64,000 nt of DNA, taken from NCBI GenBank assembly GCA_008632985.1, contig QPGO01000101.1:248001-312000 (forward strand). Direction: 5' to 3'. The DNA is from Psammoneis japonica. Its lineage: Eukaryota. Made by a program: the position numbers and the translations under genes. Positions within the stretch are counted from its first letter, which is position 1. Each line of letters starts with the position of its first letter. Below, piece after piece: positions 14,431 through 60,843 of this stretch. The notes below the pieces were generated by a model that worked only from the letters and a program-made list of their open reading frames with translations, searched no databases and had not been told where the DNA came from.

Positions 14431-16188
14431 CAAAATGAGGTGACACGCACCAGCCCCACAGCAATCCCACAGCAATCCCAACACACTTGTCCTGTGGTGA
14501 TCTCAACTGCCACATCCACTGCAGTGCCATGCATGGGTCCAAATCATCCAGCTGCAAAGAGCCTGCCAACAACAATGATTTGCTGCTGTCATTGAGCTGT
14601 TGTTTGATGGACAGCAAATCACATTTGGTGAATGTTGCTCCACAATCAATTTTGTCAGGTGAGGAATCCATCAGAGACATGTCGACCATGACCAAATCCT
14701 TGTCATCCAAAGCTTCATCACCGGCGGGACCAACAATGGACGCACCCTTTTTGTTGTCAAAAACCACACTCTCCTCATGTTTAGAGACTTGGTTGTCAGC
14801 ACTCTTGTCACTGCATTCGCTCTTTGCTCCAGGCTTTGAAAACTCTGTTGCTGCAGCATGGAAAGGTTGCATGCACGAGGTTGCTTTGTCATGCAGAGAC
14901 TGTGGCAGCGGTTCAATGTCACTCCCCCAATGCTTGTCGCAGCTGGAGTGAGGCAGGCATCTGAGATGGTTTGCTTTGAGTTCCTCAGCGACAAACTCGC
15001 TGAGCTCAGATTTTCCAATTCCTTTTTCCAAAGACATCCCAAGCAACAAAATGTCAGATGGGTTGTGGCATTTCAAAAGTGCTTTTGTGTGTCCATTCCA
15101 CACCACCTGCGCTGTTTCCCTGTGTTGTTTTTCTGCAAACAAAACTTTTGGCGTGGTGCACTTCCTTCCTGTGGTTTGATTGCACCTGACCTCTGTGTCA
15201 CCGACACCACTGCAGAGCAGGAAAGGCGATGCATCAGCCAGAACAAAGCCTCCACTCTTGGATGAGTCAAGCATCCAGATTTTGTTGCAGAGTTTCTCCA
15301 TTTGCAAATCAACTGTGTCATTCTTGGGGCTCCACAGCAGACTGCCTTTGATCACCAAGAAAGCCTCCGAATCCAAATCCTCAAGAGGATCCGAGTTGCC
15401 TTTGATCACATCAAAGTCACCGGCTGGTGTTTTCGCTGCAAACCAAAACTGGTCCATCCCTTGAAACACAGATTTTCTCTCACCTGCAGACAATTTGTTC
15501 ATCACCTTTTCCAGCAGCAACCACCCCTCACCGTGGGACAAACAGCAAGCCAGATTGATGTGGCCGAGAAACAAGTCATCACAATCCACACCAAAATCCT
15601 TCTCCAACGTTGGTTTCCCAAGAGAGAATGGAGGCGATGTGGCATGAGACTCCACCAGGACAACCAAATTTGTTTTGCCCAGTGGCTTGCCAACAACATG
15701 ACACCTGTTTGCCACCTGCACGGATTCAATCATTGGTGCTTTCCATGATTTGTCAGATGGCCACACACGTTTAAGTTCTTTGTGTGCACCCTCAAGGAAT
15801 CACTCCAAGACAGTGGCATTGACCACAGAACCAAGCAAGGAGAGTCTGCCATTGCTTTCTGTTGTCAGCAATGCTCAGTGGCAGCATCTGCAAAATGTCA
15901 AAGAATGCACAACACACAGAAGTTGGGCATTGAAACAAAACAGGCCTCTAGAGTGCCCAGCAAAATTCATCACCCCGGGCAGACTGGGTGTTCTTTTAAG
16001 CACTGCTGATTTGGCAAAATTAGAGTGCATTTCAAATCCAACTAAGATCTCAAAAAGCAACCAGACAAGTCACTTGATGAGATCTGTGATTCGTGCTGTG
16101 CAACAACTCAGAACACACCTGGGAGCCACTGCCTGGGAGCTGCCAGGATCCAAGTTGACACCTTTGTTGCATTGCTGCAGCAGGCTGA

Positions 16189-29420: not shown

Positions 29421-32400
29421 TCACTCAAATGAGCCAGAACAATCCCGATTGTTCGGTGCAAGCGAGCTTTCGTCGCTTTGGCGATACGTCTACAGTCTCC
29501 AAGCAATCGTACAAAGCCCCTGCTCCAGTCGAGAACTGATTGGAAGGGACAAAGATGCAAAGCTTACGTTTACCCCGAATCGAGCAGGCGAAACTTGCAT
29601 TCGATTGTTGGTGCGCTTGAGGCGCGCAGCAGCATCCTCGTCGTCAATTTCCGTGGCAACGCGGGTGAGACCGAGCTTTTCAAAGACGGCATGTTCGAAG
29701 CGCTTTCCGCGATGCTCGGTGGTGTACATTAATTGGACCTCCAAGAAGTTGAGCAATGCTGGGCACAAAAATGTGAGTTTGGAAAGAGGCTGTAGTTGTC
29801 CAGTATTGTTCAAATATTCCAGCAAAGACCGGAAGATGCTTCTTGCTTTCTTAAAGGCCAGCAGGTGGTTGCGAATTGCACTGTACATCAACCCTTTAGA
29901 GGGATCAAATACGAGAATGCTGTTGAGTTGGACCTTGGATACAGGGCATTTGCAGTTTGTAAAAAAGCATCCACCGAATGTTGCCGAAATTTCCAATAAA
30001 TCTTGGTCCGTCAGGTTTGCGTTCTTGGTGACAAATGATTCGCGCACTTTCAGCAACCCGTCTTCAATGGACAATGAACCGATGGAAGGAAGAAGGAAGG
30101 TGTCCTCTTTTCGTTCAATTTTGGAGAGGCTAAAATCCCTTTTGATTGTGCTGGTCAATTTTGAAGCGAACGCGTCGGCTGAATCCACGGAGGGTGGTTC
30201 ATCCGTCGTTGGCTGCGCAAAATCCCATATGCGTTGGGTGATGCCTAAGGACAACTCTTTGGTCCTTGCTACTTGTAAGAACGGCATCACAAGATGCTTC
30301 ATCGCCGTAGATCTGGTTTCCCAGGGAAGAGAGACGGTGAAGACTGAGCGGACGAAGTTCTCTGACTTGACGATAACCTCGGTTGCCTTTGAAGGACTGT
30401 TGCTGGTCACCGCGAACTTCAAAAGGTCACCCGTACGTACTTGAAACACCGGATCGGTGAGGGACTCCCAACTGCCACACGTGATGGCATTCGTGCTGGC
30501 AGCATAAAGGTCATTAGTGGTAAAGAAGTTGGTGCCATCACTTTTTCTGTCGGTAACGGAGCCAACACCAAGAATTTTCAATACATCTGCACTCTGCGAG
30601 AACACAGCATCAATGACGGCTTTCTGTCGTGGTAGGTCCGGCGACGTTTCGAGAATGAACCTGATGAGTTCGAGGTTCTTCTGCCTGCAGGCAAATAATA
30701 AGGTTTGCTCGTCCAACTCTAAGACGCTGAAGCGGTTCAACAGGAACTTGACTAAACCGAGATGACCATGACAACAAGCATTGAGAAGCATTATCGTTGC
30801 CTCTATCTTTGTTGTTGCCGTATCAGGTACATTCGCAAGAATCGTTTCTAGACACTTGACGATCTCTTCGCCGGCCATGGCGTTCGCATTTGTGTAGTGG
30901 GTGAGGTTGAGGCCGTTCTTTTTCCAGTTTGGGTATGGCTTATCTTTTGGTTCCTCCCAGCCGTGGTCCATGGCAATGGCTAAAATGGAGGCAATCATCG
31001 ACGAAGCGGTTTGCTCTTCGATGAGTCGTCCAGTACGGCAAACGACGTTCAGTCCAGTCTCTACAAAGATATCGGCATCCCAGCCATTGCAGATTGTGTT
31101 GAGAATGTCGGAATTGGCAATATCGTTCTCCACTACAACGTCCAGCGTGATCATTCTAATGTCAGACGCGCGTTGGCTACTCTTTTTCACGGCAATCGCG
31201 ATCGCGCTTGAGGCAACCCGATAAACTAGAGAGTGATCTCCGGCCGTTGCCACGTTGGACAAGGTATTTTTCAAAATATCATCCGATTGTTGCTTGGGTA
31301 GATCAAGAATGAGACTACTGATTCCTTCGGGATCGCCTTGCACCTTGCGTAGCGACGTCATTCCTTCGTTCACCCAATCTAATGGGTCTGGACTGGACCT
31401 TTCGTCGGAAGAGCGGCAAGAACGAAGCGTTCGAGCCACGGTAAGCGCGGTATCAACAAAGTTCGTCAGGATGTTACTGAAAAGCAAAACGGGAATTAGG
31501 AGATATCATGTGTGTACAAATCAACGAAATAGCACATACCGAAATTCACTAGGCGTGAGACCTGCCGATATGTCTTCGTAAGTCATGTTGATCACCATCG
31601 CGGTTCCGGTACTTGGGCTCCAAAGTTTGGTCTGTCCCAGGTAGTTGTGCTCCAACGCCTTTCGCATTACTACTGTATCCGGCGCGCCTCCCCAAACCGT
31701 TGTCGAAACACGGAATTTCAGTCCAAGGGCAGGCCCAATAAAGATTTTGAGGTGGCCGTATGTGAAGTGGCACATTCCTGCCTCATCGAGCCGAAGGAAG
31801 GCGCGGATTGATGAATCAATTTCGGTAATGTAGGCTGCCAAGGCTCGCTTGACTGTTTCAACATCGGACTGCTTGGGAACTTCAACCGAGATGGGCGACA
31901 TCAAGTAGCCATTTATACGGCTCTTAACCGCATCCAGGTTCAGATTTTCTCGCCGACCATGAAGGAGCTGCAGAGCATCAGAGATGCAATAATTGGTGGC
32001 TGCTGCTTTAATCCTCTCTCCGGCTTTGATGACACTGTCAATAAAAGTTTCCAACATCTCACAAAATGAAGCCTTGGTGTTTTCTGCTAGTCTCGAGGAG
32101 ACGGAGAACACTGCTTCATTTTTTCCTTTGGTTGCTGCAGGGCATATAAGAAGATTATTGGAAGGATTTCCTAGCTCCAAGAGTGTCGAATAGGAAAGAA
32201 GCTTATCAGCGAATTCCGCAGGTTCAAAAGCACAGTAAACCAAGAAGCTCTGCCCCCGCTGAGGAACCTGGATGAACATCGTATGTTCCTCATGCCCAAA
32301 GGCACACACGCCATCGCGATTCAGTTGCAGGGAACGGCTGATCTGACGGCCAATTGCTTGAAGCAATCCATTCACTTTCTGAATTGGTGAGTTCTCCAAT

Positions 32401-32462
32401 TGTTTTGTGGGCGTCATGTTTTCGAGGCACTCCCTCACGGTTGCATTGTTCCGGATTCGAGC
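29421..32462 (-). CDS. 3' part of the ankyrin-repeat/CesT-domain gene, downstream of the copia insertion. Exons 32462-31540, 31476-29568 and probably 29489-29421
   Basis: Two CesT-like segments (LQLNRDGVCAF...FLVY; LRLDEAGMCHF...MRKALEHNYL...EFRNILTNFVDTA across a 63-bp intron at 31477-31539) and ankyrin-like ACCHGHLGLVKFLL and ACRQKNLELIRFIL. Confidence 0.7.
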
Positions 32463-32467
32463 ATGGC

Positions 32468-32703
32468 AGTCGAGATGCAGTCCTACAGCTGAGTGGGATG
32501 GATGAGACCTCGGAGGTTGGCAGCAATGTGAATGGCGACAGAGGCAAACAGACGCTTGTTGAAAGTCGTTGTCTAGAAAATTTGTGACGAATGTCATTGC
32601 TTCTGTTTGAATCGATTTTGTGATGAGCTAATTATTTCGAAGAGAAAATCTGAGTCTGGGTTGCAGTTGTGAGATGCGACCAGAATGACGTTGAGTCGTG
32701 ACT
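32468..32703 (-). repeat. 3' LTR (236 bp)
   Basis: Colinear with 39479-39714; ends AGTC...GACT. Confidence 0.95.
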
Positions 32704-32724
32704 CTCCCTCTCAACCGAGAGAGC

Positions 32725-35700
32725 TTGCCAGCCCACAAGAGCCTTTCTGGCCACACGGAACGCATCGGTCCGCAGTCCCTTCGTGAACTGATCGGCCAGT
32801 TGCTCTGGAGTGCTGATGGGTTGGATGTCGATCTCCAATTGTTCGACTTTAGTCCTAAACCAGTGGTGCGGGACACCGATGTGTTTGGTTCGCGGAGACA
32901 ACTTGGGCATGCGTGCGAACTTGAGGCACGCGGAGTTATCTTCGCACACAATGGACGCAGGTGGGACATTCTGCTCTACAGGCGAGTCATCGGTGCCTTG
33001 GGTTGCGAGCTCAAAAGCCTTGGAGTGAGTCGTGACAGGGTTTTGGCGGTCAGACTTTCCGAGTGCGTGGTGGTTGAGCTCCTTGAGAACTTCACGAACA
33101 GGGATGAGATCGCGCACAGCTTGAGAAAGTGCGACACATTCCGCTTCCACAGTCGACAATGCTGCAAGAGTCTGCAGCTTGGACACCCAGATGAGCGGGC
33201 AGCCGGTGCAGCAGATGAGGCATCCAGTCCTGGACTTGACAGAAACTGGGTCTTGACCATCTTCCACACCAAATGACCCCGCGAAGTCAGAATCGATGCA
33301 GCAATCAACTCGATGATCTTGCGCAGGCTTGAGAATGAGACCTTCAGCAGCAGTTGCTTTGAGGTGTCGGAGCATCCGCTTCACTGCAGCAGCGTGGGAC
33401 GCTCGGGGCGCAAACGAGAATCGAGCCACTTGATGTGTGGCATGTGCAATGTCTGGCCGGCTGTTCGCTGCCAAGTGCATCAACACTCCAACAACTGAGC
33501 GATGATCGTGGGGTTCATCAAAAGGCAGGCCGTCCGTGTCGGCACCAATGGCCGCAGGTAGAGCTGGAGTGGATGCTCCATTGCAGTCCTGCATCTGTGC
33601 AGTGCGCAGGACCTTGTCAATTAGACCGGGTTGAGCGAGTAGAAATCGACCCTCGGAGAGCTTTTCGATCTTGATGCCGAGAAAGTTGCCGACTTCTCCT
33701 TCGTCTCTAAGTTCAAATGCGTGGCGATGTTCGTCGTCGGAGACTCCTGACTTGCGAATTTCGGCTTCTAGAGCTTCAGCTGAAGCTCCAGCAAAAACGG
33801 TGTCGTCGACGTGCACCACACACATCATGCCCTCTTTGAAATACAAACAGGGATCTGTGGCTGAAGGTGCCCATCCGCGCTCGGTTAAACCAGCTCGCAA
33901 CTTCTTGCAGAAGCCCTTGGGAGACTGTTTTAGGCCGCACAGTCCTTTCAAAAGTTTGAGAACCACATTGAGTCCCGACCTTGGCGCAAATCCCTTCGGC
34001 GGTGTCACACAAACTTCCTCGGCGACATCAGCTTGGCAAAAGGCTGTGGTGCAGTCCACCTGTCGTGCAGTCCATCCCTCCTTTAATGCCGCAGTGAGCA
34101 TGAGTCGGATGCTGGACCATTGCACAACCGGCGCGTGGGTTTCAAAAGCAGTCGACTCCTTCTTTCTGCAAATCACCGCGGACGCAGTGTCGGGCCTTGC
34201 ACTTGAGAGGGGTTCCATCTGGGAGTCTCTTGAGCTTTGGTGCCCATGTGCCTGGAAGTGCATTCACATGCGGCTGACGCTCGACTGCTTTCCAGGCTTG
34301 ACGATGTGTGAGTGCGTTGACTTCAATTTTCATCGCCTCAATCCATTCGTCAGCGTCCGGACCTTTCAGAGCTTTGTTCGACGAAGGCATGTCAGGGTCC
34401 TTGGTTTTCTCACTAGCTGCGCAGGCTCGTGGATCGCCGACATTGATGGCGCCACTGTCCAAATCCGTCTCGAGAGTCGCCAGATGCGCCAGTTGAGCCT
34501 CGTGTCCGATCGGCAGTGGCATTTCCTCGACGGAGCTGAAGCAGACCTCATCTGCAAACTTGGCAGAGTTGAACTGTCCCTTGGTTGACCGTGAAGACCG
34601 TCGCAGCCCTGGTGCTCCCTCTGGATTCGTCACAGGAGGTGTCTCGACTGGGGGAGGAGCTGTTGGTTCCGTCAGCGCTTCAGGTGGCGGAAGTCCGTTG
34701 CCATCTTGAGGTTCAGGTGGCTGAAGTGGCGCAGAGTCCGCAGAGTCTGCAGGAGTTTGAGTCGCAGGTGGGACTGGTGGCGTTGGCTGCTGAGTCGCAG
34801 GTGTGACTCGATCGGCAACGTCGTTGCAAGAAGTGGGTGAATCCGGCACAGCAATCGATGGAGCAGGCTCAAAATGCCCGCGAATGCGTGTTGCTCTGGC
34901 CAGTTCTCGTTCTTTACGTTGACGCTCTGGAGGGGTGAGCCACTCATCGTGTGAATGAACTGCCTGATCCTTCTCCAGAGGGATGCATGTCGATTGGTTG
35001 AGGCACAAGTGTTCCCAGTGATCAGGTGGATCCGTCTCCCTCTCGATTGATGGTGCGGCAGTGAAGAGATCGTCAAAGACCACATGACACTGAGGTGCAA
35101 CACTTCCAGTTTGAAGATTGAGGACCAAAGGAACCTCACTGGAATGGATGGCACTGAGTCCCACGAACAAAGCGCGACGAGTGCGAGGCTCCCAACGCGG
35201 GAGCTTCTTCCCGGAAGCAAGGGTCGGGTCAAGTACGTACGCTGGACATCCCCATGTGTGAATGTCGCGCAACCGATGTCTTGGCACTGTCGAACCGGTG
35301 AAAATGTCCGCTGGGCAATGTCCTTTGGAATTTGGGGTGACATTGTAGATGTGCGTGGCACAAGAAACTGCCATGGGCCATGGGGAGCTGTCAATTCCCC
35401 CCTTCCAGTGGATTGATGCATGAAGCAACATCGCTCTCGCCATGTTGGAGATGCTGTGGATGCCCCGCTCTGTGACGCCGTTCTGATGATGGGCGTTGGT
35501 TCCACAAAAACGGAGACGTTGTTCATGTTCTCGTGTGTGTTGTACAAAAGCGTTGGCCTTGAAAGCGCCACTGTCGGTAAGAAATTCTTGGACGATGACC
35601 CCGTGGTCCAAAGCATGTTTCTCAAACGCTTGCTTCGCGCGTGTCGTCTCAACAGCGGAGAAACCTGGTTGGTGCTCGACCTGGACATAGCCAGAGGCGT

Positions 35701-38700
35701 GGTCGACAAAGATGCAACCGCCCTTGAATTGCTTGGACATGGCTTTGCCATGAGAGTCGAAGGTGTGGCCTAAAAGGCGCGACTCAAAATGATCAACGCT
35801 GACAGCCTGACCCGGTCGAAGATGGTCAGCTCGAAGGGCCCCGTCGCGTTCAGGGACTGTCGACTTGTGAGTAGATCCAAGAGAGCGTCTGTGACCTTTA
35901 GCACATTCGCATGCCTCGCATCTTGGGTGGTCACACTTCGCTGCGGACTTGAAACGGTTCGAAAGGAACGGAACTGCGCGGAGAAGTGCTTGGACGCAGC
36001 CAAAGTTCAAATGGCCAAAACGGGCGTGCATTTCGAGAAGAAGCTTTTGGCCTGCCGTGAGGTTTTGATTCTCCTTGTTAAGGATCTGAAGGTTCACTTG
36101 AGGAGCGGCAGATACGCCCTTGGTCATCGACGCAACGGGCAAGTGGCTTGATGGATGATGTGGCACGACCAACTTGCCCATCCCGTCAACATGTAAACGG
36201 AAAGTGGTTTCATCGCCCTCACACTTCCCACGTACCCCCTTCTCTTCGTTGAAGAGGCGTTGAGGCGACAGCAGGCACTGACGGGCTCCAGGGACGTAGC
36301 ATGCCATGGTGTTCAGTTGGATGGTAGCCCCACTCGGCGTTGTGAACACCCACGCAACCGGACCGGCACCCTGGATGGTAAGACCGTTGGCAATCCCATT
36401 GATCTGTAAGGGATTCTTGGGAACAGTCACAGGCCCCGTAAAATCATCTTTGTCGGGGGCAATGGCTAACGTGGCACCAGCATCCATGACGACCGTGAGA
36501 GCCTCGTCCGACAGACCGATGAGTGCCTGCGGATCGGATGCAAGGAGGTCGGCTTGTGATTGTCCGGTGAGCAGTTGGATGGTGGAGGTGTTGTAGACGA
36601 CTGGTCTAACACTTGCTTCCTCCAACAGTTCCACAGGATCTTGAAAATGGGCAGTGTCCACGACATGATGCGGCAGACAGAGCTCGTCAAACCGGAAGAA
36701 ATCCGGGCTGAAGTCCTCAAGAGCGTCAAAGAAATGCTTCTGGTCGTCGAGAGGTTCCAGTTCCTCACAGGCATCAAAGAAGGCTGATTCGTCTATCGCA
36801 TCAGACCGTTCAGCTACTTCCAGGCTCTCCCAGCAGGCCTTGAGACGAGTGCTCAGTGCGTGTGACGGATGGCGCGTGACAAACTCGGTGAGTGCTTGCG
36901 TGCCTTTGATCCTGTGATGTTCGAACAGTGACCCCACATCCAACACTGTCCGGTCATCTAGCTCTTCCACAATGTGGTAGACTTGAGAGCTGGCGGTCGA
37001 AAAACGACTTGGTACGTTCGAGAATGGATGCTCGGGCTGTTGACTGGCGTAAACTGCTGACCATGCCATCACTGCAACGGATGGGACCATCCAGGAGGCT
37101 GGAAACCCGTGCAAAGTTGGGAGTTTGCGCTGGCGGCGTAGAGCTCGAGGGATGCATGGGATCGGAGCAAAGCAAAGATGTGGTGCCGTTTCCCAAAACA
37201 TGGCGGCGAGCCAGAATGTGAACAGCTTGACTCGACCCAAGAGTGAGCGACGCGAAGTGGGCTCGTCTTCGACGTCCTCGTGACAATCATCCGCATCCAG
37301 GACCTCTGGATCGTAGAAATCGAAGCCACGACACGTGACACACGGAGGCAAGTCGCAGCATGCGTCTTCAAAGTGTACGTCGTGTTCAAGGATGAGATCC
37401 AACTTGGTGTCGTCTGACAGCACATCCGTCAAATGTGCGGGAGCGTCAAAGAACTCATCTGGATGCTTGACAGAGTACAGCTTCGAGGCCGGAAACAACT
37501 CAATGGCCGGTGGTTCGTTTTCAAAGGTAGAGAAAGCATCGGAGCATTCGCAGAAGTCATCGGCGTCTTCGGGAGTGACAGTCTCAACCACGATGGGAGA
37601 CACGACTGGATCCACGACTGAGGTGAGCACAGGTGGGCTCGTTTCGATGCAAACCACCTCAGTGCTAACGACTGCATTGCTCTCCCTCTCGGCCGAAGAA
37701 GCCGGAGTAACAACAATTGCAGCAGTGACAGGGGCGGAACAGAAATCCGGGTCGGCAACGGGATCCGTAGCCGCGCACCACATTCCCGTGAAAACCAACT
37801 CGTTGGGGTCGGATTCGTCTCCCTCTGGTGCCTTGGCAGTCTGAGCGGGCGGACCCATGGGCACGCCACTGTCTGGATCAGCAACGGAAGACAAATTCCC
37901 GGCTGGGGTCTCATTGGGAGGTTGCCTGCGGTCGTCGGCATGTTCCGCGGTAGAGTGTTTCTGGTGGATTCCAATTTTGTCGGCACCCTTTGCCGTGCAC
38001 GTGGCACACCACTTCCATTCCTTGCCATTCTTGTCCTTCTTCATTTCTCCGTCAAATTTAGCACGCCAGGCAGCGATGGGTTGCCTCTTCTTCTTGGAAG
38101 GGTCGTCTGCAGGCGGCGGATTGGGAGGAGGATCGTCGCGCGGCGGTTTGGCGTTGCACTTCGGACACGTCTTCTTGGTGTGCCCCTCGAGACCGCAACC
38201 ACAACAGTGCTTCATCTTCCCAGGGCCATCCGCAGTCGAAAGATTACTCTCAGGTAGCTTGGCGACTAATGCAGGCCATTCCCCGTCCTTCACGAGTTCG
38301 TTGTGTTGCTCTTGAATCCACGCAATGATGCCGACCGGTCCGAGCGTTTTGCAATCGCTGTCGGACACGATGTCAGCAGGATTCTTGAGGCGGCACTTGC
38401 GTTCCATGGCCTTGACGTCGTCGAGCTTGTTGCAGACTCGGCGATTGAAGTGTTCAGAGGACGTAGAGGAGATCTTGTGGAGCAGCTTGGAGCTTGTGTT
38501 CGCCGGAAGCACGCAGTCGGTCTGCACAATTTTCACGATGCGAAGAGCTTCGGCAGCAAAATCCGTGCAATCCTCGCCGGGATGGCCAACCAAACTGAGG
38601 TCTTCCAGCTGCTTCTCAGCCGTCTCAATGTCCGTCAGAGCGCTGGCATTGCAAGTGTCGAGAGCCATCATGAACAGAACAGATCCAGGGCAGTCTTGGC

Positions 38701-39316
38701 AGTCCGAAAGATGGTTGAACTTGGTCTCGATTTTCTCGCGAAAGGCATCAGTGATTCTTGAGTGAACGAGAAGTTGAGAGAGCCCGACATCGTCGAGCTC
38801 GATCTCGTCGTACTTGGTGTCATCGGCAGCTGCTTTCCCAGCCATGCACTCGTTCACGAGATCGGTCACAGCAAACTCGTGAAGATGGTCGAAGACACAT
38901 TGAACCTTGTCGTCGCTGTCCTTGACATGGCAGAACGTCTGCTGACCGTGGGCTTCCACTAGATCTCAAACAGTCTTGACGAAATGGTCCTTGTCAAGCT
39001 CGTTGATGGGACCGTCCGAAATCTCAAGTCGACCGTTGAACTTGGAAGTCATTGCGGAAGCTTGTTGACCGCAGAGAGATCGTTCTGTCGAGTCGAGAGC
39101 CTTGGGATGACGGCGCTGAGAGGCGAGTCGGCAGGTTCTGTCGTTGGATTGTTCGCAGTTGTTGTTGAGTTTGGAACCACCAATGTGAACCCCGTGGGCT
39201 GGGTGAACTCCACCACGCAACGGCTTGGTTGGAGCCGGAGGAGCGGTCGCCGCGGCGTCAGCGGCCATTGCATTGGCAAACGCCTTTGCCAGAACATCTG
39301 GATCGATGGTGGCCAT
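32725..39316 (-). pseudogene. Copia gag-pol polyprotein pseudogene
   Basis: Zn knuckle CxxCGLEGHTKKTC, protease MDAGAT, integrase HARFGH..CEAC and SVDH/TDSG/NGVTER, RT LCGLKQS and HVDD, RNase H DSDFAG/EAEC/EDN/ADQFTK. Lesions: in-frame TGA at 38966-38968, frameshift near 34142, and the presumed stop read as CAA at 32725-32727. Confidence 0.95.
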
Positions 39317-39478
39317 GATGGAGAGTGCAGTGTGGGAGGCTCTTGTCAGAGTGAAGACGAGAGAAGCGAGAGAGACTCAGCCATTTCCCGGGTTTGCTTC
39401 AACATCAAAAACCGAAAGCGTCCGTGACGATGACTCGGTCAGGAGCTCTCGTCAATGCGCAAATTGGTCTCTGTGGCC

Positions 39479-39714
39479 AGTCGAGATGCAGTCCTGCAGC
39501 TGAGTGGGATGGACAAGACCTCGGAGGTTGGTGGCAATGTGAACAGTGACAGAGGCAAACAGACGCTTGTTGAAAGTCGTTGTCTAGAAAATTTATGATG
39601 AGTGTCGTTGCTTCTGTTTGAATCGATTTTGTGATGAGCCAATTATTTCGAAGAGAAAATCTGAGTCTGGGTTGTAGTCGTGAGATGCGACCAGAATGAC
39701 GTTGAGTCGTGACC
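39479..39714 (-). repeat. 5' LTR (236 bp)
   Basis: Colinear with 32468-32703. Confidence 0.95.
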
Positions 39715-42498
39715 ACAGTGCAACGGGCTTTGTCCTTTCATGTCAGTCTCTTGTGTGTTCATGCCCAACTGGCCCACCATGTGGCGCAGGATGGCAATGC
39801 TGTCATGCTCTACAGCGCAGTGAGCAAGTGTTTCACCGTTTCGACCACGGGTGCCCGGTTTGACAACGTCAACCACCCAGGATACAATTCTTGGATGCCC
39901 TCCGTGGCAAGACGCTTTGAGAATCGCTGTGCTTTGATTTTCGATGTCGGCTTTCAAAAAGAACTGCCCAATCCACTCGTGCAACTTCAAATGACCAAGT
40001 TCGGCAGCTCGTGCAATGACGGATTCATCATTCTCGCCACGGTGCGACATGTCGAAATTGAATGTCTCTTTGAGCCAGACAACAAAGGAGAAGCGGTTTT
40101 CACTCCCGGCGGTTCGAACGTTGTCGGCAGACAGCACCGCCATCATCAAGTTCTCGTTCTTCTCCTCCCGAACAGCTCGCACCTGCTCTGGGGTCTCGCG
40201 TGCATTCAACAGTGTCTTGACGGTCTGGAATTCGCAAAAGCGTGCGGCTTCTATTACGAGAGGTTCCAACGTTCTTCGGGGGCACTCGACTTTCTCACCA
40301 ACAAGTGTTGTCAACACATCTAGAGAAATGCCTGAACCAACAAGACTGTCCAAGAGCTTTCTCGCCTGGTCCTCGCTTGTAGGAGTGACCATTTCAACAG
40401 AGTGCAGACACCACGCAAGGAAACTGGCTCTGCGCTGAACGTCAAGTGGGTGCTTCGGAGCACCATTCTTTGTCCTGTTTTCACCAAGAATGGCCAAAGC
40501 TGCCTTTACCGGGTCCTCGTTTACAAGCCGTAGCATTGGTTCGGAGAACAGACTCGCAAGCGACAAGTCTGCCACTTTAAGTGCCTGTTCTAGCACCAGA
40601 TTTTGCAAGCCAGTACCTGGCGTCTTCTCCTTGTAAAGAGAATCAACGAAAGGTGCGAGTTGTCCAGTCCGCACAGACCAATTCGGCGCATTTTGAATGA
40701 CCTCGCTAAGAAAGATATCCAAAGGCACATCAATGCCACAGTCCCTGTCGATGTTGTTGATCTTATCTAGGTCACCCAAGCTGTTAGAAAGCACAGTGCC
40801 GTTCTTGGCCGCCATCATAGAGAGACTCGAGCTTGGAGTTCCCTTATACGCGAGACCATGGTGCTCCAGACAATCAATCAGTGCACCAAACCCTTGACGT
40901 CTGCATGCCGACTCAAATAGCTTATTCACTTCAGATTGAATAGTGCATTCTTTCAAGTCTAGATCTTCGCGACGCGAGAGAAGAATGTCGATCAGATCAA
41001 GCGCACCGCTGGATACACAGTGCTGCAAAACAGACGTTCCACTGTTGTCGCGAGTGTTGATGTCCATGTGTTTACCCCTACAATGCTCATCATAGAAGTC
41101 TAGGTCCAACAAAAATTCGAACAGCTCTTTGGAATGTGTCTCGGCAGCCATTGAAAACAGGTTGCGTCCCTCCCAGAAAGGTTCGTTTAGAAATTTCGAG
41201 GCCTTGCTCAAAAGATATGCAAATATTTCACGGTTCCCATTCTGGGCAGCGCAAACCAAGCAGTTGAAGCCATTGCTGTGCTTGTAGTCCCAGCTTCCGG
41301 GCGCAAGTTCAAGGACACATTTTACAGTCTTGAACGACCCAGAGCCAATGGCTTCCTCCAGATAAGTCTCAAAATTGATTTCTCGCAGATCAAAAGAAAG
41401 ATCAGCTCCCTTTGCAACCATCATTTGAACTAACTGATAGTTTCCCTTTCGCAAAGCCAAGCGAAGAGATGTAGTCATGTCAGCACGATCAACACTCTCA
41501 AGCAACATACTGCAAGTCAAGGGCGAATGCCAGCGCAACAAAGCATTGTTGATGGGGTGGGAGATAGCCCACGCTGACCACATAGAGGCATCATTAGCCT
41601 GTAACAATCCAAGACTCATCTTGTAGCTTGCACACAGTAGCGCCTCATCCAAAATGGTGAAGCGGAATTCATCAATGCAATCGATAGCGAGGTTGAATTC
41701 TTTCAGCAAGAGCTGAAGCATTTCAGGAGAATGAACGGCATAATGCCCCAACGTGGAAAGCAAACTATTGTTTTCAGTCTTTACACCCAGGTCTCGCAAC
41801 TTGACAACAATCTCGACATTGCCGCTGCGAACGGCATTCGAAATGACGCTACCATCAGCATCAATGTCGTCCACCTGAGACATCCATTCCAACGTCCAGT
41901 CAACATCACCAGATAACGCTACAAAGACATAAGCAACGTCTTCGCCCGACCATCCGTGAGCTCTTTTCCACTCTGGCTGGGCGTTGTACTCGTTCACGAG
42001 GCGCCTCGTCTCTTCCTTACGGCCCAAAGCCGCGGCTTCGGGAAGCTCGACGATCGCTTTCTCATTACTCTCGAGACTCAAAATGTATTCCAAAGTCTTG
42101 TTAGCCTTGTGAGAAATAGCCTCGGTAAGCGCACTACAGAGCGATTCATTCCGATGTTGCAAGATATCGGCGCCGAAGCGCTGAACCCAATCTTTGAGAA
42201 TCGTGACAGAGTCATTCGCAGCAGCCACCATGACTAAATTCAACGAAAGATAGTGGCTGTATTCCGGATCATAGCCGAATCCATCGATATCAATGATTTG
42301 GTACTTGTGGACGTTGCGCATCCCGAGTCTGATGCGTTCTCGTCCAACGTTACCTTGCAGAGCCGCGTCTGGATAGATACACAAATCCAAGGCACTTCCT
42401 GACCCGGGCATCATATCGAAATCCCAGGCATTTGGGTTAGACGACGTGGGATCGATCGGAACGCTGTCCGAGTTAGATGGCTCGTTCTTGTTACTCAT
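39715..42498 (-). CDS. 5' part of the large ankyrin-repeat protein gene, interrupted by the copia element
   Basis: Many ankyrin repeats (NAVRSGNVEIVVKL, LALRKGNYQLVQMM, AAQNGNREIFAYLL, GETLAH, GQSPLH). Probable start MSNKNE at 42498. The frame continues exactly at 32462 once the element and one TSD are removed. Confidence 0.85.
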
Positions 42499-42999
42499 GG
42501 TGCTGCTCAAAGCAAAAGTAGTGTGTACGAACGCAAGGTAAGAAGAGAACGGGGACCTGAAATCGAGCAAAGAACATACGTGACATCGACTCTGCTCTTC
42601 GTGAAAAGACCAACTAAGAAAACAACATCGCCCCGCGCCGCGCACAGATAAATCAAAAGATGTTGAACGATTCCCACTTACAAGGTAGCTGGATCTGAAG
42701 CGGATGAAGTGGGCACGAAGTCTCTCTCTTATCAGGGAAGCTTGTTGTTCTCACAAGAGAAGTGATGAGGGCGTGCTGCGCCGCAGAGCCAGAGCAAACG
42801 TCCGAAAGACGAACGAAGCCAATCGTGCACATTCAACATGGACACAGCGGGGTAATTTGTTTGAAAGAAAGACGGACCCCTACAGCGGCGCCGTGAATTG
42901 CGCGAAAGTGTGCATGAGCGGTTTAGTCTTGAGTCCATGGGGTGCACACGATAACAGAAGAAAGAGTCCCCCCCCTCCCCTCTGTGTCCGGAACCCCAA

Positions 43000-45900
43000 T
43001 CGTGCATTGCGTGCTGCACACGCGATGGCCGCAAAGAACCAGCCGATGATTCTGCAGAGGCCTCAAGGTGACACACAATGATTGGACTCAAAGCAACCAG
43101 GATGACCAAAGGTGACACACAAAAGACTCTCAAGATGTTGAAATGCTTTGATTTTGGAGCACTTGAAACATGAGTAAAAAGCTCTGAAGGACGCCACATG
43201 TCCTCACCCATTTTCACCCACCCCCCAGTGGCGCGAAAGCAGAACAGGTGCGAAGTCTCAAGAACATCAGCATCGCCTTTGTTGCAAGTCAAAATGTGAG
43301 AAATGAATTGTTGCGCAATCTGGTCAATCAATGTGATGCACCTGTTGATTGTGCATTTGTGTGTTTCTTGCTGTCAACACATCATCGAGATGCTGAGACA
43401 TTGCCCCGCAGCAGCAGAATTTTTGACTTTGACCAATCTGCACCCCGGCACTTGATGCTGTGCAAGTTGCAGCTTGACTCTGCTCAAATTAGAGAATTGA
43501 AAAACATCTCTCTGCTTTTGCAATGGCCTGCTGTTTTTCCAGTCTAAAACATGAAGAGCCATGTTCTGTTCAATCTGGCTCGGTCATGTGATGGCAGGGC
43601 ACTGGCACTCCTTGCTCTCAGTTGCATGTTGCGGCACTGACAGAACAGCATGTTGTGACATTGGGAGGCCTGCTCCAACTCTTGGTGAAATGCTTCTGAA
43701 CATCCTCACAGTTTTGGCACCAGCTGTGTTTGCAGCAGATGAGCTCTCCAAAAATCCCCGGGGTCCGTGTCAGCACGTTTTGATGTGCTCTTCCATGGGA
43801 AGCATGAGCTCCCAGGGAATCATGACTGGTGCCACTTTGTTTCACACCAGCATTTTCCCACACTTCCCCTCTCACACTGTTGCATCTTGTCACAACAGGT
43901 GCAAGCCACAAGGCATCTGGAGTGAGAGGGCCAAGGCTGCAGCACAGAGCTGTGTGGCGCTCTTTGTCACTGTGCAGTGCTTCTTGTGTCTTCTGACATT
44001 GTCAGTTGATGTGCTCTTGTTCCTGCATTTGCCAGGTTCACACTGCACACATTGCTGCTGCCATCACAACAAGGGGGCCTTTTTTTGCCCCAAGAGGACA
44101 GACAGCAGAATTTTGCGTGGCACAGCTGCAAAAAAATTCTGAGTTTTTGGGGCACTGAACTTGTGCAGCAAGTCAATCGCTCAGCCATCATCTCTTGCAA
44201 TGGCATTGTGATGACAAGCCCACAGTGCACACTCAAGCTGAACAATGAAGGCCCGCAAGCTCTCATTTGTTGTCATTTTGCCATTTTGCCTGCATTTTTC
44301 ACACAGGTGTTGTCTCAAATTTGAAACGCACAAAATGAAAAAAGCACTCGTCATTGAGGACAATCAACAACAAAACATCTCTGCAAATTCTCAAATGGCG
44401 GACGACTCTCTTTTTTGTCACAGAAAATGTGGTGGCGATGCACTGCTTTTGACCCCCCATTGTGCCATGCCTCAACATTCATGTGTCCCACTGTTTTCAC
44501 CAAGATCTCTGTTGTCTTTCTGACTGATTCATTGAAGACAATCAAAAACACAAAACATCTCTGCAAATTCTCAATCAGCAGACAACTCTCTTGTTCTTGT
44601 CACAGAAAATGTGGTGCGGCGATGTGCTGCTTTTGACCCCCCCATTGTGCCATGCTGCAACATTCATTTGTCCCACTGTTTTTACCAAGATCTCCATTGA
44701 CCTTCTGACTGATGCTTGTAGATTGGGTTTGTGTGTCAAACAATGGGAAGCCACTCAAAGAGTTGCTTTTGCAAGATGACAGACCGGTCGGAAGAGGACA
44801 GACCAATTTTCTGCTTGTGCCCTGGACAGTCTCTCTGCTGCCCGCTGGCAGCTGGAGTGGCCAGCAGTTGGTGGTTGTCCGTGCAGACACCATGACACCA
44901 TGTGTGCCATTTCTGGCTGCGGCAATCCTGGCACTGATTCTATGAGACAGCACACAAGACAGCACACTTTGCATGAAAAAAGCTTGCCGGTGATTGATTT
45001 GTGGCCCCCACCCCTGTGGCAGGGGAGAATGTGGTGATGTCATGGTTGTGTCACAGATTTGCATCTCATTCATTGTGTTTTCATGTGAGCATCCTCACAT
45101 GCATTTGTGCATTTGCACACAAATGCCAGCGGCAGCAGAAAAAATCCTGAACCACATTCTCCCCTAAAACTCTGACCTCCAAAATCCGGGGGCATGGAAA
45201 TGCATTTTTTGCAGCTCTTTTCTTTGCACAAAAAACATGCGTTTTGACAACTCAACCATGATGGTGCCTCTTGGTTCTTCCCCATCCACTTCCCAGGATG
45301 CCGATCCCACTGATGCCGTTGCCAACAACAGCGACACAACAGGTGATGTCATTGTTCCGGTTCTCGTGGGTGTGATGCACACAAAATAAGATGCTGCAAA
45401 CTCACACTGTTGTTTGCATGCTCCACCGCCTCCCACAGACATGCTGTCACAAACTCCAATGCCGTGCCTGCGTTTCGGGCCCCTGGCATGCCCAATGCTG
45501 TTGCTCCTGCCCTTGCTGCTGCAGGCATTGTTGACACTGTCATTGTCTTTTGCCAATGATGTCTACAATGAAGTGCCAACAACACTTCTTTCATTCTTGC
45601 CCCGCCGCCTCCCAAAGGTGCTGCCATGAATTCAAGTGCCGTGCCTGCATTTGGCCCACCAGTGTTCCCGATGCTGTTCCTCCTGCCCTGGCTGCCACAG
45701 GTGCTGTTGACACTGTCATTGTTTTTGCTTTGGAAGGAGCGCAGTGGATGATGGCGGACCAGGAAACCCTCACAACCATGGCCTGCTGATGGACGAGTGT
45801 TGGTGTCATGGCTCTCATGCTTTCTGTGTTTGTTCATGGTTTTCTGGTTTTGGTTCAAGGAGGACAATCAACAACAAAACATCTCTGCAAATTCTCAAAT

Positions 45901-48900
45901 GGCGGACGACTCTCTTTTTTGTCACAGAAAATGTGGTGGCGATGCACTGCTTTTGACCCCCCATTGTGCCATGCCTCAACATTCATGTGTCCCACTGTTT
46001 TCACCAAGATCTCTGTTGTCTTTCTGACTGATTCATTGAAGACAATCAAAAACACAAAACATCTCTGCAAATTCTCAATCAGCAGACAACTCTCTTGTTC
46101 TTGTCACAGAAAATGTGGTGCGGCGATGTGCTGCTTTTGACCCCCCCATTGTGCCATGCTGCAACATTCATTTGTCCCACTGTTTTTACCAAGATCTCCA
46201 TTGACCTTCTGACTGATGCTTGTAGATTGGGTTTGTGTGTCAAACAATGGGAAGCCACTCAAAGAGTTGCTTTTGCAAGATGACAGACCGGTCGGAAGAG
46301 GACAGACCAATTTTCTGCTTGTGCCCTGGACAGTCTCTCTGCTGCCCGCTGGCAGCTGGAGTGGCCAGCAGTTGGTGGTTGTCCGTGCAGACACCATGAC
46401 ACCATGTGTGCCATTTCTGGCTGCGGCAATCCTGGCACTGATTCTATGAGACAGCACACAAGACAGCACACTTTGCATGAAAAAAGCTTGCCGGTGATTG
46501 ATTTGTGGCCCCCACCCCTGTGGCAGGGGAGAATGTGGTGATGTCATGGTTGTGTCACAGATTTGCATCTCATTCATTGTGTTTTCATGTGAGCATCCTC
46601 ACATGCATTTGTGCATTTGCACACAAATGCCAGCGGCAGCAGAAAAAATCCTGAACCACATTCTCCCCTAAAACTCTGACCTCCAAAATCCGGGGGCATG
46701 GAAATGCATTTTTTGCAGCTCTTTTCTTTGCACAAAAAACATGCGTTTTGACAACTCAACCATGATGGTGCCTCTTGGTTCTTCCCCATCCACTTCCCAG
46801 GATGCCGATCCCACTGATGCCGTTGCCAACAACAGTGACACAACAGGTGATGTCATTGTTCCGGTTCTCGTGGGTGTGATGCACACAAAATAAGATGCTG
46901 CAAACTCACACTGTTGTTTGCATGCTCCACCGCCTCCCACAGACATGCTGTCACAAACTCCAATGCCGTGCCTGCGTTTCGGGCCCCTGGCATGCCCAAT
47001 GCTGTTGCTCCTGCCCTTGCTGCTGCAGGCATTGTTGACACTGTCATTGTCTTTTGCCAATGATGTCTACAATGAAGTGCCAACAACACTTCTTTCATTC
47101 TTGCCCCGCCGCCTCCCAAAGGTGCTGCCATGAATTCAAGTGCCGTGCCTGCATTTGGCCCACCAGTGTTCCCGATGCTGTTCCTCCTGCCCTGGCTGCC
47201 ACAGGTGCTGTTGACACTGTCATTGTTTTTGCTTTGGAAGGAGCGCAGTGGATGATGGCGGACCAGGAAACCCTCACAACCATGGCCTGCTGATGGACGA
47301 GTGTTGGTGTCATGGCTCTCATGCTTTCTGTGTTTGTTCATGGTTTTCTGGTTTTGGTTCAAGGAAACTTCTGAAGCACTTGCAGCCCATGGGGCAAAGA
47401 CATGGTGATCAATTTTTCAGATGTCACAAGTGTCAACACCCGTGTTGCACAAGCATTCAGCAGGCTCTTTGCCTGCCCTTTGCTGGCCTGCAACATCAAT
47501 GGACGTGAGCAGCGCCTCTTGGTTGGCTCTTGAGTGCAGTCTAATCTTTGGAATGCACAGACACATTGTGCAGCTCTCTGTAAATTAGAAACCTGACAAC
47601 AATTCGATGCTTTCACTGTTTTTTAGTTTCAAGTTGGAGAGGTCAGCAAATTGGCATTTGTTTGCAGGTGACTTGGCAATGTTTCAAGTGGCACATGTGA
47701 CTTGGACACTGCTCCATTTTCCAGGACTGGGTCATCATGTGCAGCTCCATGAGATGCCACTCTTGCCATTTGAATTCTGCATGTGATGTGCAATGTGCTG
47801 TTTTGCAAGTTGCTAAAATGGGGGCAGGTGGCAACGTGCTTTTGGCAAACACTCACTGTGTTTGTCGCTGTTGTGCCTTCAAAACTGGCACCATGTTGAT
47901 GGCTGTGCTGCTGCATTGCATGCCGACACCTTCTCTGCCCGCATTCCAACAGCTGCATCCTCCTTCACATCATGTTGCTGCCGTTCATCTTGACACCTGT
48001 TGTTGGCTCCGATTGGTTCCGCTGGGCTCTGGGTGAGCCTCAATCACCTCCAGATGGAGGAGGTTGTGCTTGGGAGTGATGCTCCTGAGAAAAGTTGTCA
48101 CGATGCCTCCCATCATGGGTGCTCCTCTGCCATGCCCACGCCCATGCAAGGAGCATCGACCAGTTCATTGGTGCTCCTTGATCCTGCGCCTTTGTTGTTC
48201 CAAGCAAAATCGCCTCACTCTGCCACCACCAGGCCCGCTTGCATCCATGGCAGTCGGGTCATGAGCGGGATTGTTTTGCCTTGTTGTTGCATTGTGCTTG
48301 ATTGCAGCACTCAATGACAAATGGTGGCAATGCTGTCCATGGTCAATTTTGGATCCGGCAAAAATGGGCTCAAACTTCAGGATTGCAAATCTGCTGTGTT
48401 TGGGTTACAACAGCGGGTGTGATGGCACCGTCCAATGTGGGAGAGACTGTTGTGTCAGAAACGGCAGGCGGGCATGGGTGAAGTGGTGCAGGGGACGAAG
48501 AATGGGAGGTTGTCATGGTCAAGTCGTCAAAACGCGTGATGTTTTGGTGTGTGCGCTGTCTTCCAAAAAGTGCGTTTCTGCACCCCCGGTTTTTGGAGGT
48601 CAGAGTTTTGGGGGAGCTGTGGAACAGGAATTTTTGCTCATGGAACATGCACATCCATGTGGATGTTGACATTGAAGCTCAACGCATGGTGAAGCCGTGT
48701 GTGCGCAACCATGGACACACACACAGCTCCCCTGCCACGCACAGGGGTGCGTGCCCCCCGACTGTGACAAACTCATTTCTCATGTTTTGGATCAAGACAT
48801 CACATTCATGCCATGTGTTTGGTCCAAATGTGGCATCTGCATGGACGACCATTGCCAGTGGTCATCCGCACAGATGCCATGATGCCATGTGTGCTGTCTC

Positions 48901-50130
48901 TGGCTGCGGCAATCCTGGCACTAATTCTGCGAGATGGCACACAAGACAGCACATTTCGCGTAAAAAAAAGCATGCCGGCGATTGATTTGTGGCCCCCGAC
49001 TGCAATGCACTCATTTCTCATGCATTCAGAAGCCTTCAAATGCCACTTTAAATCGATTTTCCCTTGTGCCATCCACAAGCCCCCAAGCCCTGTGGTGTTC
49101 AATGCTTTGCTCTCAACGGCAAAACAACCAGGGAGCATTGGAAAAATTGTGGTGGCATTTTGGATCGAGATGCCACATTGACACTGCCCCATTTGGTCCA
49201 AATGTGGTGTCTGTGCGCATGACCACCAGCTGGCTGGAGTTCGTCATTGACAGAGCAGCAGCCGGCTGTCTCAAGTTTTGGAGTGATGCCTTCATCACGA
49301 TGACGGCAACAATGGCAGTGGCGGGTGGAGAGTTGAACATGTCTTTTTAAGCTGTTTAAACAGACCCCATCACTTGTGCACAGTCTCACCCAACATTCAT
49401 CACATCAATTGAGACAATGAACACCTGTTCTTCAAGTCCAAATGCAGCAGCTGGGCCTGCTCCTTCAAAAGTTGATGATGGCTCCATCACGGGACAATCA
49501 AAGTCAGTGTTGGGCAACACTCCATCCAGTGGCAGCAGCAAAGAGGGAGCGCCTGTGGAGCCAAGGACATCTGTTGGCACGGATGCATCGTGTCCTCTCG
49601 AAATGTTTGATTCATCCGATGACGATGATGATGACAGTGTGGAGGATGCAAGAAAGAAAAAACAATGAAACGAGACTTCACTTGTGAACTCCAACCAAGG
49701 AAATCAGAAGCGAAGTCACACCAGTGTTGACTCTGAAGCGGTGAACGAACCTGCACACAAAAAGAGTGCAAACAAGTCGAGTGATGATGTGGTTGTCATT
49801 GATTTGACTGGCACTGCCGGTGATTGTGGTGGTGACGGCTCATCAAGCAATGTGCTTGACCTTGCAGGAAATCTCGACCACAACAGTGCTCGGATCAGTT
49901 TCGGTTCCTTTCGGAAGAAACGAAGCAGCAGTCCATCCGAGAAGGCAGCAAAAAGTTCCAGACCAAGACAGTTTCCTCGTCCCAGCAGTGTTGCTGCTCG
50001 TGGTGGTGCCACCACAAAGCCACCACCACCTGGTGCTCAAGCAAAACAGTTGCCTCACGCCAAGCCGCCTCCCACATCAACATTGTTGTCAGCTTCTACA
50101 GCATCCAGAAGACAGTCATCATCATTCTTG
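43000..50130. repeat. Second TpA-depleted block of degenerate repeats
   Basis: TA nearly absent; contains tandem, direct and inverted repeat copies. Confidence 0.85.
44356..47365 (+). repeat. Near-perfect tandem duplication, 1504-bp period
   Basis: Identical ORF sets are offset by 1504 bp. One difference seen: acagcgac versus acagtgac. Confidence 0.95.
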
Positions 50131-60492: not shown

Positions 60493-60843
60493 TCTGTCAA
60501 TGTGAATACGATGTTGATATTCGTTTCCTTCCAACTGCGCTGAAATAACGATGAATTGCTCGACAATGAAAAATTCAAATGCCTGAACCCTCACAATTTA
60601 TGAATGTGAACGCAAGCTACAGCAGTAACAGGAAGAATTGAAACAGGGGAAGAAGGCATGACATGTACAGCACTTGTAAGGATAACGCCAAACGCCTTGT
60701 AACTTACCGGTGTGCGGTATGGCGGGTATCGTACCACACCCACACCGTCGGTTCAACTTGTATCCGCGATTCGGGGATCGTGGATAGCCCTAGTGGTCCA
60801 AGGACGGACACACAGCATTTTGTCGCCAATTGCGACATTCCCA

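Follow-up and report, generated by a model that had tools for sequence, protein, structure and literature searches.

A copia-type retrotransposon within a host gene, apparently mutated in place by rapid loss of TpA and slower loss of CpG

Organisation of the retrotransposon

The window examined in this study is a stretch of 64,000 nucleotides of contig QPGO01000101.1 (assembly GCA_008632985.1, positions 248,001 to 312,000 of the forward strand). Between positions 32468 and 39714 of the window a retrotransposon with two long terminal repeats (LTRs) was identified, interrupting a host gene and depleted of the dinucleotide TA (TpA). The differences between its two LTRs, and what they indicate about the process by which TA was lost from the element and from neighbouring DNA, are described here.

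The element is encoded on the minus strand, with its 3’ LTR to the left on the plus strand (32468-32703) and its 5’ LTR to the right (39479-39714). Each LTR is 236 nt in length. The 3’ LTR possesses the ends AGTC...GACT, while the 5’ LTR ends on the plus strand in a C (T in the other LTR) that adjoins an A of the host. A polypurine tract, GAGAGGGAG (minus-strand letters), was read from the sequence at 32704-32712 on the minus strand, adjoining the 3’ LTR. Two long open frames, both on the minus strand, were identified between the repeats. One of 1607 aa (34142-38965) is predicted to represent the gag-to-integrase part of the polyprotein, based on gag_pre-integrase and SH3_retrovirus matches that lie upstream of the reverse transcriptase (both below their Pfam cut-offs) and on alignment to homologs across 1428 positions. 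The other, of 543 aa (32632-34263), is in a different frame and corresponds to the reverse transcriptase and RNase H, with an RVT_2 match of 99.2 bits (Pfam cut-off 31.6). The polyprotein is broken into these two frames where they overlap at 34142-34263, and at 34144/34145 the contigs of the family differ in length by 1 nt. Tyrosine makes up 0.6% of the residues of the 1607-aa frame, and the YVDD box of the reverse transcriptase reads HVDD.

A search with the reverse transcriptase frame returned 246 proteins at E ≤ 1e-3 among 8000 scored candidates, the best with 59-61% identity. The best homologs are polyproteins of approximately 2100-2300 aa, those that are named being from the diatom Fragilaria crotonensis (P0007, P0015), and the element is colinear with these copia polyproteins, its integrase region preceding the reverse transcriptase. 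By these features the element can be categorized as a minus-strand LTR retrotransposon of the Ty1/copia group and of diatom type. With the diatom copia-like elements (CoDi type) it shares 59% identity over the reverse transcriptase and RNase H, the size of the polyprotein, the position of the integrase before the reverse transcriptase and short LTRs. It differs from them in being a dead copy with a split frame, in which 23 of 25 conserved tyrosines have given way to other residues (Cys or His in 19 cases). The abundance of the family is evident in run X1, where the summed contig depth is approximately 2800-6900 over the element compared to 61-64 in its flanks, and 2977 X1 contig pieces could be placed at a likeness of at least 80%. 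When a conserved stretch of the LTR, made degenerate at its two CG steps, was used to scan metagenome_contigs, no matches were obtained.

Insertion into the host gene

The sequences on either side of the element were found to be the two halves of a single minus-strand host gene. The N-terminal half (39715-42750) has ankyrin Pfam hits and is colinear with residues 20-924 of protein P0241 and 35-958 of P0242, while the C-terminal half (31521-32467) has a CesT match of 30.7 bits, and its stretch 31524-32465 can be aligned with P0241 over residues 959-1253 and with P0242 over residues 960-1281. These two metagenome proteins, at 33-38% identity, were the relatives found for this architecture of ankyrin repeats followed by a CesT-like domain. 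A second, similar ankyrin open reading frame (ORF) lies at 29490-31505, immediately downstream of the split gene.

The element is bordered by a 5-bp target-site duplication, the left copy reading ATGGC (32463-32467) and the right copy ACAGT (39715-39719). The copies are identical at only two of five bases, the other three being transitions (one reciprocal TG/CA pair and one C/T); they were nevertheless accepted as a duplication because the host frame and the alignment to the homologs close exactly across them. Both copies lie in the same codon phase as their respective half-genes, and the duplicated codon is a His codon (CAT) in the left copy and a Cys codon (TGT) in the right one. Each of these is one transition away from TAT, and P0242 has a tyrosine at that column, which is suggestive of a TAT ancestor.

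Contigs of run X1 cross both of the outer LTR junctions, one over 31000-32514 (two differences from the window, both outside the LTR) and one over 39686-41200 (one difference). The three differences, which lie within 3 kb of unique flank at 32399, 32412 and 40828, are all transitions, two of them CG to TG, and may represent allelic or strain variation.

Comparison of the two LTRs

Alignment of 32468-32703 with 39479-39714 required no gaps and showed 16 differences in 236 positions, all of them transitions, with no transversions or indels. Four of the differences have TA in one copy (left/right: 32485 TA/TG, 32584 TG/TA, 32629 TA/CA, 32664 CA/TA) and four have CG in one copy (32536 CG/TG, 32588 CG/TG, 32596 CA/CG, 32668 TG/CG). 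A further three dinucleotides are reciprocal, with TG in one LTR and CA in the other (32503-4 TG/CA, 32521-2 CA/TG, 32533-4 TG/CA), so that 14 of the 16 differences fall at TA, CG or reciprocal TG/CA steps. Counted by step, TA is present in both copies twice and in one copy four times, CG in both copies nine times and in one copy four times, with the three reciprocal steps in addition. The fifteenth difference is accounted for by the junction with the host: at the terminal position (32703/39714, T/C) the left T is followed by an internal C and the right C by the host A, a TA having been present there solely at the LTR/host junction. This leaves 32591 (A/G, GAAT/GAGT) as the one difference outside these contexts.

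The significance of this distribution was assessed with 20,000 simulations in which 16 random transitions were scattered over the two LTR copies. The mean number falling into the TA, CG and reciprocal classes was 7.21, with P(≥14) = 0.0003-0.0004 and P(≥3 reciprocal) ≤ 0.00005. A preliminary description of this DNA, made by inspection of the sequence, had listed the same left and right differences, placed nearly all of them at ancestral TA or CG sites and named the GAAT/GAGT site as the sole exception; every listed item was found in the alignment at its described context, and the simulated probability of about 3e-4, together with the junction TA, bears out the generalization.

TG and CA can each be derived from either TA or CG, and the ancestry of the three reciprocal sites was compared under a model of loss per copy. 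Treating them as former TA gave a log likelihood (lnL) of -18.10 and as former CG one of -22.74, TA ancestry being favoured because nine CGs remain intact in both LTRs. The loss per copy estimated from the LTRs was 0.65 for TA and 0.17 for CG. The former value is in line with the deficit of TA over the whole element, and TA was lost from this DNA at about five times the pace of CpG decay. Set against a single unexplained difference in 236 nt, a loss of 0.65 would place the TA process approximately 100-fold above untargeted change.

The two LTRs of a retrotransposon are identical at insertion, and each difference between them is therefore a dated mutation that occurred in place. Since the LTRs differ, host bases of the target-site duplication have changed and a TA spanning the LTR/host junction has been altered, the changes postdate integration and were made in DNA. 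The colinearity of the two host halves and the single frame that runs across the duplication agree with the view of the preliminary description that the changes arose in place.

Direction of change

Conservation among 84 copia homologs was used as an outgroup for the direction of change, covering 602 columns with at least 80% agreement among at least 30 aligned homologs. The element retains the consensus residue at 511 of the 602 columns, but at only two of the 25 conserved tyrosine columns, where Tyr has been replaced by Cys (TGY) in ten cases, His (CAY) in nine, Phe in two, and Ile and Trp in one each. Six of these columns have Tyr in 84/84 homologs. Retention of the other residues was 44-100% (Met 4/9, Ile 13/21, the remainder at least 77%), and the homologs themselves retain Tyr at these columns with a median of 95%, three of the 84 being below 80%.

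At the nucleotide level, the 91 changed columns comprise 22 A>G changes (17 after T), 18 T>C (17 before A), nine G>A (five at CG), one C>T (at CG), 15 transversions, 23 multi-step changes and three ambiguous cases. Among the 50 single-step transitions, 34 are changes of TA to TG or CA and six of CG to TG or CA. Polarised A>G or T>C changes at conserved columns therefore number 40 (34 at TA), against 10 G>A or C>T changes and 15 transversions. The balance of Tyr to Cys (10) and Tyr to His (9) replacements indicates that both strands were mutated. Stop codons cannot arise through the TpA process, and the polyprotein accordingly remains open while its tyrosines are turned into cysteine and histidine.

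These codon comparisons support an ancestral TA from which TG and CA were derived, opposite to the direction of fungal repeat-induced point mutation (RIP). Loss of TA had also been the direction proposed in the preliminary description; the retention of two of 25 tyrosines, with 19 replaced by Cys or His, and the better fit of a TA ancestor at the reciprocal sites both speak in its favour.

Loss of TA in the surrounding DNA

Depletion of TA was not limited to the element. Two blocks, at 2-29 kb (2001-29000) and 43-50 kb (43001-50000), are almost devoid of TA, with observed/expected (o/e) ratios of 0.00-0.10 for TA, 0.12-0.71 for CG and 1.40-2.04 for CA/TG; in the second block alone (43001-50000) TA o/e is 0.04-0.10. 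The region at 61-64 kb has ratios of 0.11-0.16 for TA, 0.47-0.81 for CG and 1.65-1.78 for CA/TG. The values for the element are 0.17-0.18, 0.91 and 1.31, respectively, and those for blocks of host genes 0.34-0.71, 0.76-1.17 and 1.04-1.39. Where TA and CG are both low, CA/TG ratios of 1.8 are reached. Within the element it is mainly TA that has been lost, and its GC content reaches up to 55%. A 1-kb profile shows the TA-less blocks to be sharply bordered at that scale, and by our own arithmetic the excess of CA/TG is about that expected from full conversion of TA and partial conversion of CG.

Unique host DNA within 500 bp of the 5’ LTR (39715-40214) has a TA o/e of 0.07 and a CG o/e of 0.96, while the opposite flank (31968-32467) has a TA o/e of 0.35, compared to 0.54-0.68 farther out. 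The loss of TA thus spreads past the element into approximately 500 bp of flank, and the loss of CpG does not.

The longest frame in the TA-less DNA, of 495 aa (14315-15799, minus strand), is a dead gene with no tyrosine at all. It has 69 homologs at E ≤ 1e-3 (best 3e-31) and belongs to a family without a Pfam model, none of the 13 homologs searched against Pfam giving a hit. Among 84 columns with a 60% consensus in this family, all six conserved Tyr columns were changed in the ORF, three to Cys and three to His. The family alignment also contains invariant His, Asn, Trp and Pro-Ser columns.

The same kinds of change were seen between repeats in TA-poor DNA. In the repeat pair designated D4, all 20 differences are transitions, with 18 of them at TA, CG or reciprocal sites (six reciprocal), and in the pair designated I1, 25 of 47 differences lie at such sites (five reciprocal).

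Preference for the neighbouring base

The TAs that survive are not a random sample of contexts when the host-gene blocks are taken as a proxy, and no more than a proxy, for the ancestral mix. TTA/TAA types make up 82 of 101 surviving TAs (81%) in the TA-less blocks compared to 233 of 590 (39%) in the host-gene blocks, and TTAA 26% in the TA-less blocks, 5% in the element and 4% in the host-gene blocks. ATA/TAT types account for 12 of 101 (12%) in the TA-less blocks and eight of 66 (12%) in the element, against 281 of 590 (48%) in the host-gene blocks. TAT is the best target and is lost first, TAA is the worst and TTAA is lost last.

Comparison with the rest of the family

The letter held by the majority of the family was established for the best 40 of 503 variable places (430 transitions and 71 transversions), a sample biased towards places where the family is near-unanimous; one of the 40, position 32668, lies in an LTR. 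At 20 of these 40 places, including 32668, a CG of the family is replaced by CA or TG in the window, corresponding to CpG decay in this copy. One place, 39187, fits a loss of TA in the window, the sole such case among the 40.

A number of observations weigh against the loss of TA in place as the explanation of the differences described above. Family letters are known for 40 of the 503 variable places only. Among these 40, the window has TA at 36114 and 38267 where nearly all of the family depth has TG or CA, and three further places are reciprocal TG/CA. At 33508-33510 (residue 252 of the reverse transcriptase frame, ORF B), where Trp is found in 84/84 homologs, most of the family carries TGC and the window CAC, a flip that takes two steps through TA or CG, one of them counter to the proposed flow. 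Ectopic gene conversion from the roughly 80 copies of the family could have imported some of the LTR variants. The tyrosine at the duplicated host codon comes from one homolog of approximately 30% identity, and an ancestral CGT would require no more steps. Furthermore, run X1 possibly derives from the same sample as the assembly of the window, so the X1 contigs do not constitute independent support. We read the places with TA in the window and TG or CA in the family as earlier changes in the source lineage together with flips through unstable intermediates, noting that change in the reverse direction would give the same result. Flips of TG to CA like that at 33508-33510 may account for many reciprocal sites in old repeats.

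Proposed process and alternative explanations

The explanation that we favour, with a probability of about 0.8, is that a copia element lying in a host gene was mutated in situ by a fast process converting TpA to TpG or CpA, together with a slower CpG process, both acting on silenced or foreign DNA. A Ty1/copia element would have inserted into the host ankyrin/CesT-like gene, after which the fast process would produce A:T to G:C transitions at the A of 5’-TA-3’ on either strand, giving TpG or CpA, while the slower one would turn CpG into TpG or CpA, presumably as the usual result of 5-methylcytosine deamination. Each LTR would have been struck independently, the pair thereby displaying the spectrum directly, and the neighbouring TA-less blocks would represent DNA in which the TpA process has run to completion. 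The chemistry underlying the observed spectrum, direction, timing after insertion, action on both strands, regional nature and leakage into approximately 500 bp of flank would most likely be an enzyme-catalysed deamination in DNA, by which adenine at T-A steps becomes hypoxanthine, acting best at TAT and worst at TAA. Such deamination may be aimed at a chromatin domain and not at a sequence. A mechanism of this kind has been proposed for the alga Bigelowiella natans (Mettrop et al., bioRxiv 10.64898/2026.01.13.699255).

Change in the direction of RIP, with C to T transitions at CpA/TpG creating TA from ancestral TG or CA, would account for the TA of the window at 36114 and 38267, where nearly all of the family depth has TG or CA. 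We give it next to no weight, as TA is depleted (o/e 0.18 for the element, 0.00-0.10 for the TA-less blocks), invariant Tyr codons have turned to Cys and His, and the open frames, 2150 aa in total, have not accumulated the TAA and TAG stops that RIP creates. Decay of CpG alone would require the reciprocal sites to be CGs struck on opposite strands and the four TA/TG and TA/CA sites to be chance transitions. It does cover the four LTR sites with CG in one copy, the family CG at 32668 and the 20 family-CG places among the best 40 of 503; with nine CGs intact in both LTRs, however, three double hits are unlikely (lnL -22.74 compared to -18.10), CG o/e in the element is 0.91 against 0.18 for TA, and CpG decay cannot convert Tyr codons (TAY) to Cys or His, making this explanation very improbable. 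Editing of the element transcript by an ADAR-type A-to-I activity before reverse transcription is hardly credible. Such editing never makes stop codons, and its 5’ U preference matches the TA context, as described in the Discussion of the B. natans preprint (bioRxiv 10.64898/2026.01.13.699255). Both LTRs are copied from one template, though, so editing cannot make them differ; host bases in the target duplication and the 500-bp flank have changed, as have TAs at the LTR/host junction; and the two strands are affected equally (10 Tyr to Cys and nine Tyr to His). RNA editing could nevertheless contribute to differences between copies of the family.

An artefact, either a chimeric assembly joining LTRs of different copies or the miscalling of modified bases at TA in silenced DNA, has to be considered for so highly repeated a family (depth of approximately 2800-6900 against 61-64 in the flanks), and approximately 63% of the sampled 31-mers of a 10-kb stretch were present in X1. 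We regard it as very unlikely: X1 contigs span both junctions, the flanks are halves of one host gene with one frame across the duplication, TA loss reaches the unique flank and, with sharp borders, 27 kb of DNA that is not repeated, and the same spectrum is real mutation in Illumina-sequenced B. natans lines, according to the main text of the preprint (bioRxiv 10.64898/2026.01.13.699255). A variant of the favoured process with another chemistry, in which the T of TpA is oxidised to 5-hydroxymethyl- or 5-formyluracil by a TET/JBP-type enzyme and mispairs with G to give T to C changes, is unlikely, though less so than the foregoing. Enzymes of the TET/JBP type occur in protists, and T>C on one strand cannot be distinguished in sequence from A>G on the other; the window provides nothing that speaks against it, as the preference for TAT over TAA can be expressed for either base. 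GC-biased gene conversion was rejected as the main cause, being without TpA specificity and incapable of making identical LTRs differ.

Comparison with known mutational systems

RIP, described in fungi, makes TpA from CpA, lowers GC content and creates stop codons. The process proposed here resembles it in that context-bound transitions kill transposons in place, affect both strands, spread to neighbouring DNA and inflate LTR divergence. It differs in that TpA is destroyed, GC is raised (55% in the element) and stops are never created; moreover, the 495-aa single-copy gene is fully converted, and the window does not imply a dependence on repeats. CpG decay by 5-methylcytosine deamination occurs in methylated transposons and covers the four CG sites of the LTRs, the 20 family-CG places and the CG o/e of 0.12-0.7 in the TA-less blocks, but it leaves the loss of TA unexplained.

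TpA-specific hypermutation was found, in a full-text literature search, to have been reported so far in one 2026 preprint for one alga. As described in the main text of that preprint, integrated DNA of nucleocytoplasmic large DNA viruses (NCLDV) and virophages in B. natans undergoes such hypermutation: two viral insertions acquired 231 mutations in mutation-accumulation lines, of which 230 were A>G or T>C and lay at TpA, the rate being approximately 6e-7 per site per generation compared to 3.5e-10 elsewhere, or approximately 1000-fold over background (bioRxiv 10.64898/2026.01.13.699255). The same source describes 324 coding sequences (CDS) with a TpA frequency of 0.0018 and 124 TpA-poor clusters, an enrichment of reverse-transcriptase Pfams in the TpA-depleted CDS, and an ADAT2-like DNA adenine deaminase proposed by its authors (bioRxiv 10.64898/2026.01.13.699255). 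Shared with the present window, as far as the preprint’s main text describes the system, are near-exclusive A>G and T>C changes at TpA on both strands, their regional occurrence, with mobile DNA (here the copia element) among the apparent targets, and clusters that are depleted of TpA and enriched in CpA and TpG, the CDS TpA frequency of approximately 0.002 equalling that of the TA-less blocks.

The depletion seen here over 27 kb is far deeper than that of the B. natans NCLDV region as given in the preprint (Rho 0.45). Also unlike that system, in the form in which the main text presents it, are the LTR retrotransposon as a target with a datable LTR pair, the accompanying CpG decay, the leakage into a flanking host gene and the visible preference for the next base (TAT first, TTAA last). 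None of the words LTR, retrotransposon, CpG, trinucleotide and flanking is used in that main text (bioRxiv 10.64898/2026.01.13.699255).

Consequences for dating and annotation

The raw divergence of the LTR pair is 0.068, or 0.073 as a Kimura two-parameter (K2P) distance. Among the 126 LTR positions outside TA, CG, TG and CA steps two differences were found, one of which is the junction TA, and the divergence from untargeted change is about 0.004-0.008. As most of the differences stem from the TA/CG process, raw LTR dating overstates the age of the insertion roughly ten-fold. The warning of the preliminary description that LTR dating would overestimate the age here was therefore justified, one of 16 differences (K2P 0.073) being unexplained by this process.

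A broader proposal, which we consider evenly poised between right and wrong, is that the window represents a second lineage, probably a diatom-like alga and not the chlorarachniophyte B. natans, with a DNA editing defence directed at chromatin domains. The long, intronless genes of the window and the diatom affinity of its copia relatives make B. natans an improbable source. This defence would erase TpA (best at TAT, worst at TTAA) from retrotransposons and silenced DNA, would be accompanied by CpG decay, would spread a few hundred bases into genes and would be complete over tens of kb. If true, the erasure of TpA would be widespread in algae as the equivalent of RIP in fungi, killing genes without the introduction of stops, and LTR dating and gene prediction would be systematically distorted in such genomes. 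The LTR pair amounts to a natural experiment for TpA hypermutation. What it and its surroundings add are retrotransposons as a struck target, the timing relative to integration, a rate approximately five times that of CpG decay, leakage into a host gene, near-complete erasure over tens of kb, and a preference for the next base to which any candidate enzyme has to conform.

Gene prediction is affected in that TA-less DNA carries long open frames in all six phases, which mislead gene callers. The TA-less blocks contain 110 ORFs of at least 120 aa (approximately 38 kb), none of which reached a Pfam cut-off, with six sub-threshold hits. Dead genes in such DNA are recognisable by missing Tyr and an excess of Cys and His. 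A search of viral_contigs for relatives of the TA-less blocks, made with the 495-aa ORF, found none, and short PDB profile matches to designed PPR proteins were read as spurious. These results therefore speak neither for nor against a viral source of the blocks like that in B. natans.

Other features of the window

A 1504-bp tandem duplication of 99-100% identity was identified at 44351-47230, in the second TA-less block, with internal repeats spaced at 176-185 nt and of 78-89% identity. This duplication is probably younger than the erasure of TA.

The TA-poor region near the right end of the window contains a large imperfect palindrome (60844-63546; TA o/e 0.11-0.16), with arms that are 70-92% complementary and nested repeat pairs designated I1 to I6. 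Its centre lies near the sole N of the window, at 62082, and it could be either a real hairpin-forming repeat or an assembly fold-back.

An intronless ORF of 2447 aa was found on the minus strand at 53254-60597, with FG-GAP_2 repeats (240 bits) and normal TA and CG content. Its best relatives, at 36-38% identity, are mostly metagenome or bacterial-type proteins, together with one protein of the diatom Cyclotella atomus. A small ORF for a DOT1-like methyltransferase lies on the plus strand at 51506-52303, its nearest Atlas clusters, which score at most 0.88, being from haptophytes, oomycetes and giant viruses.

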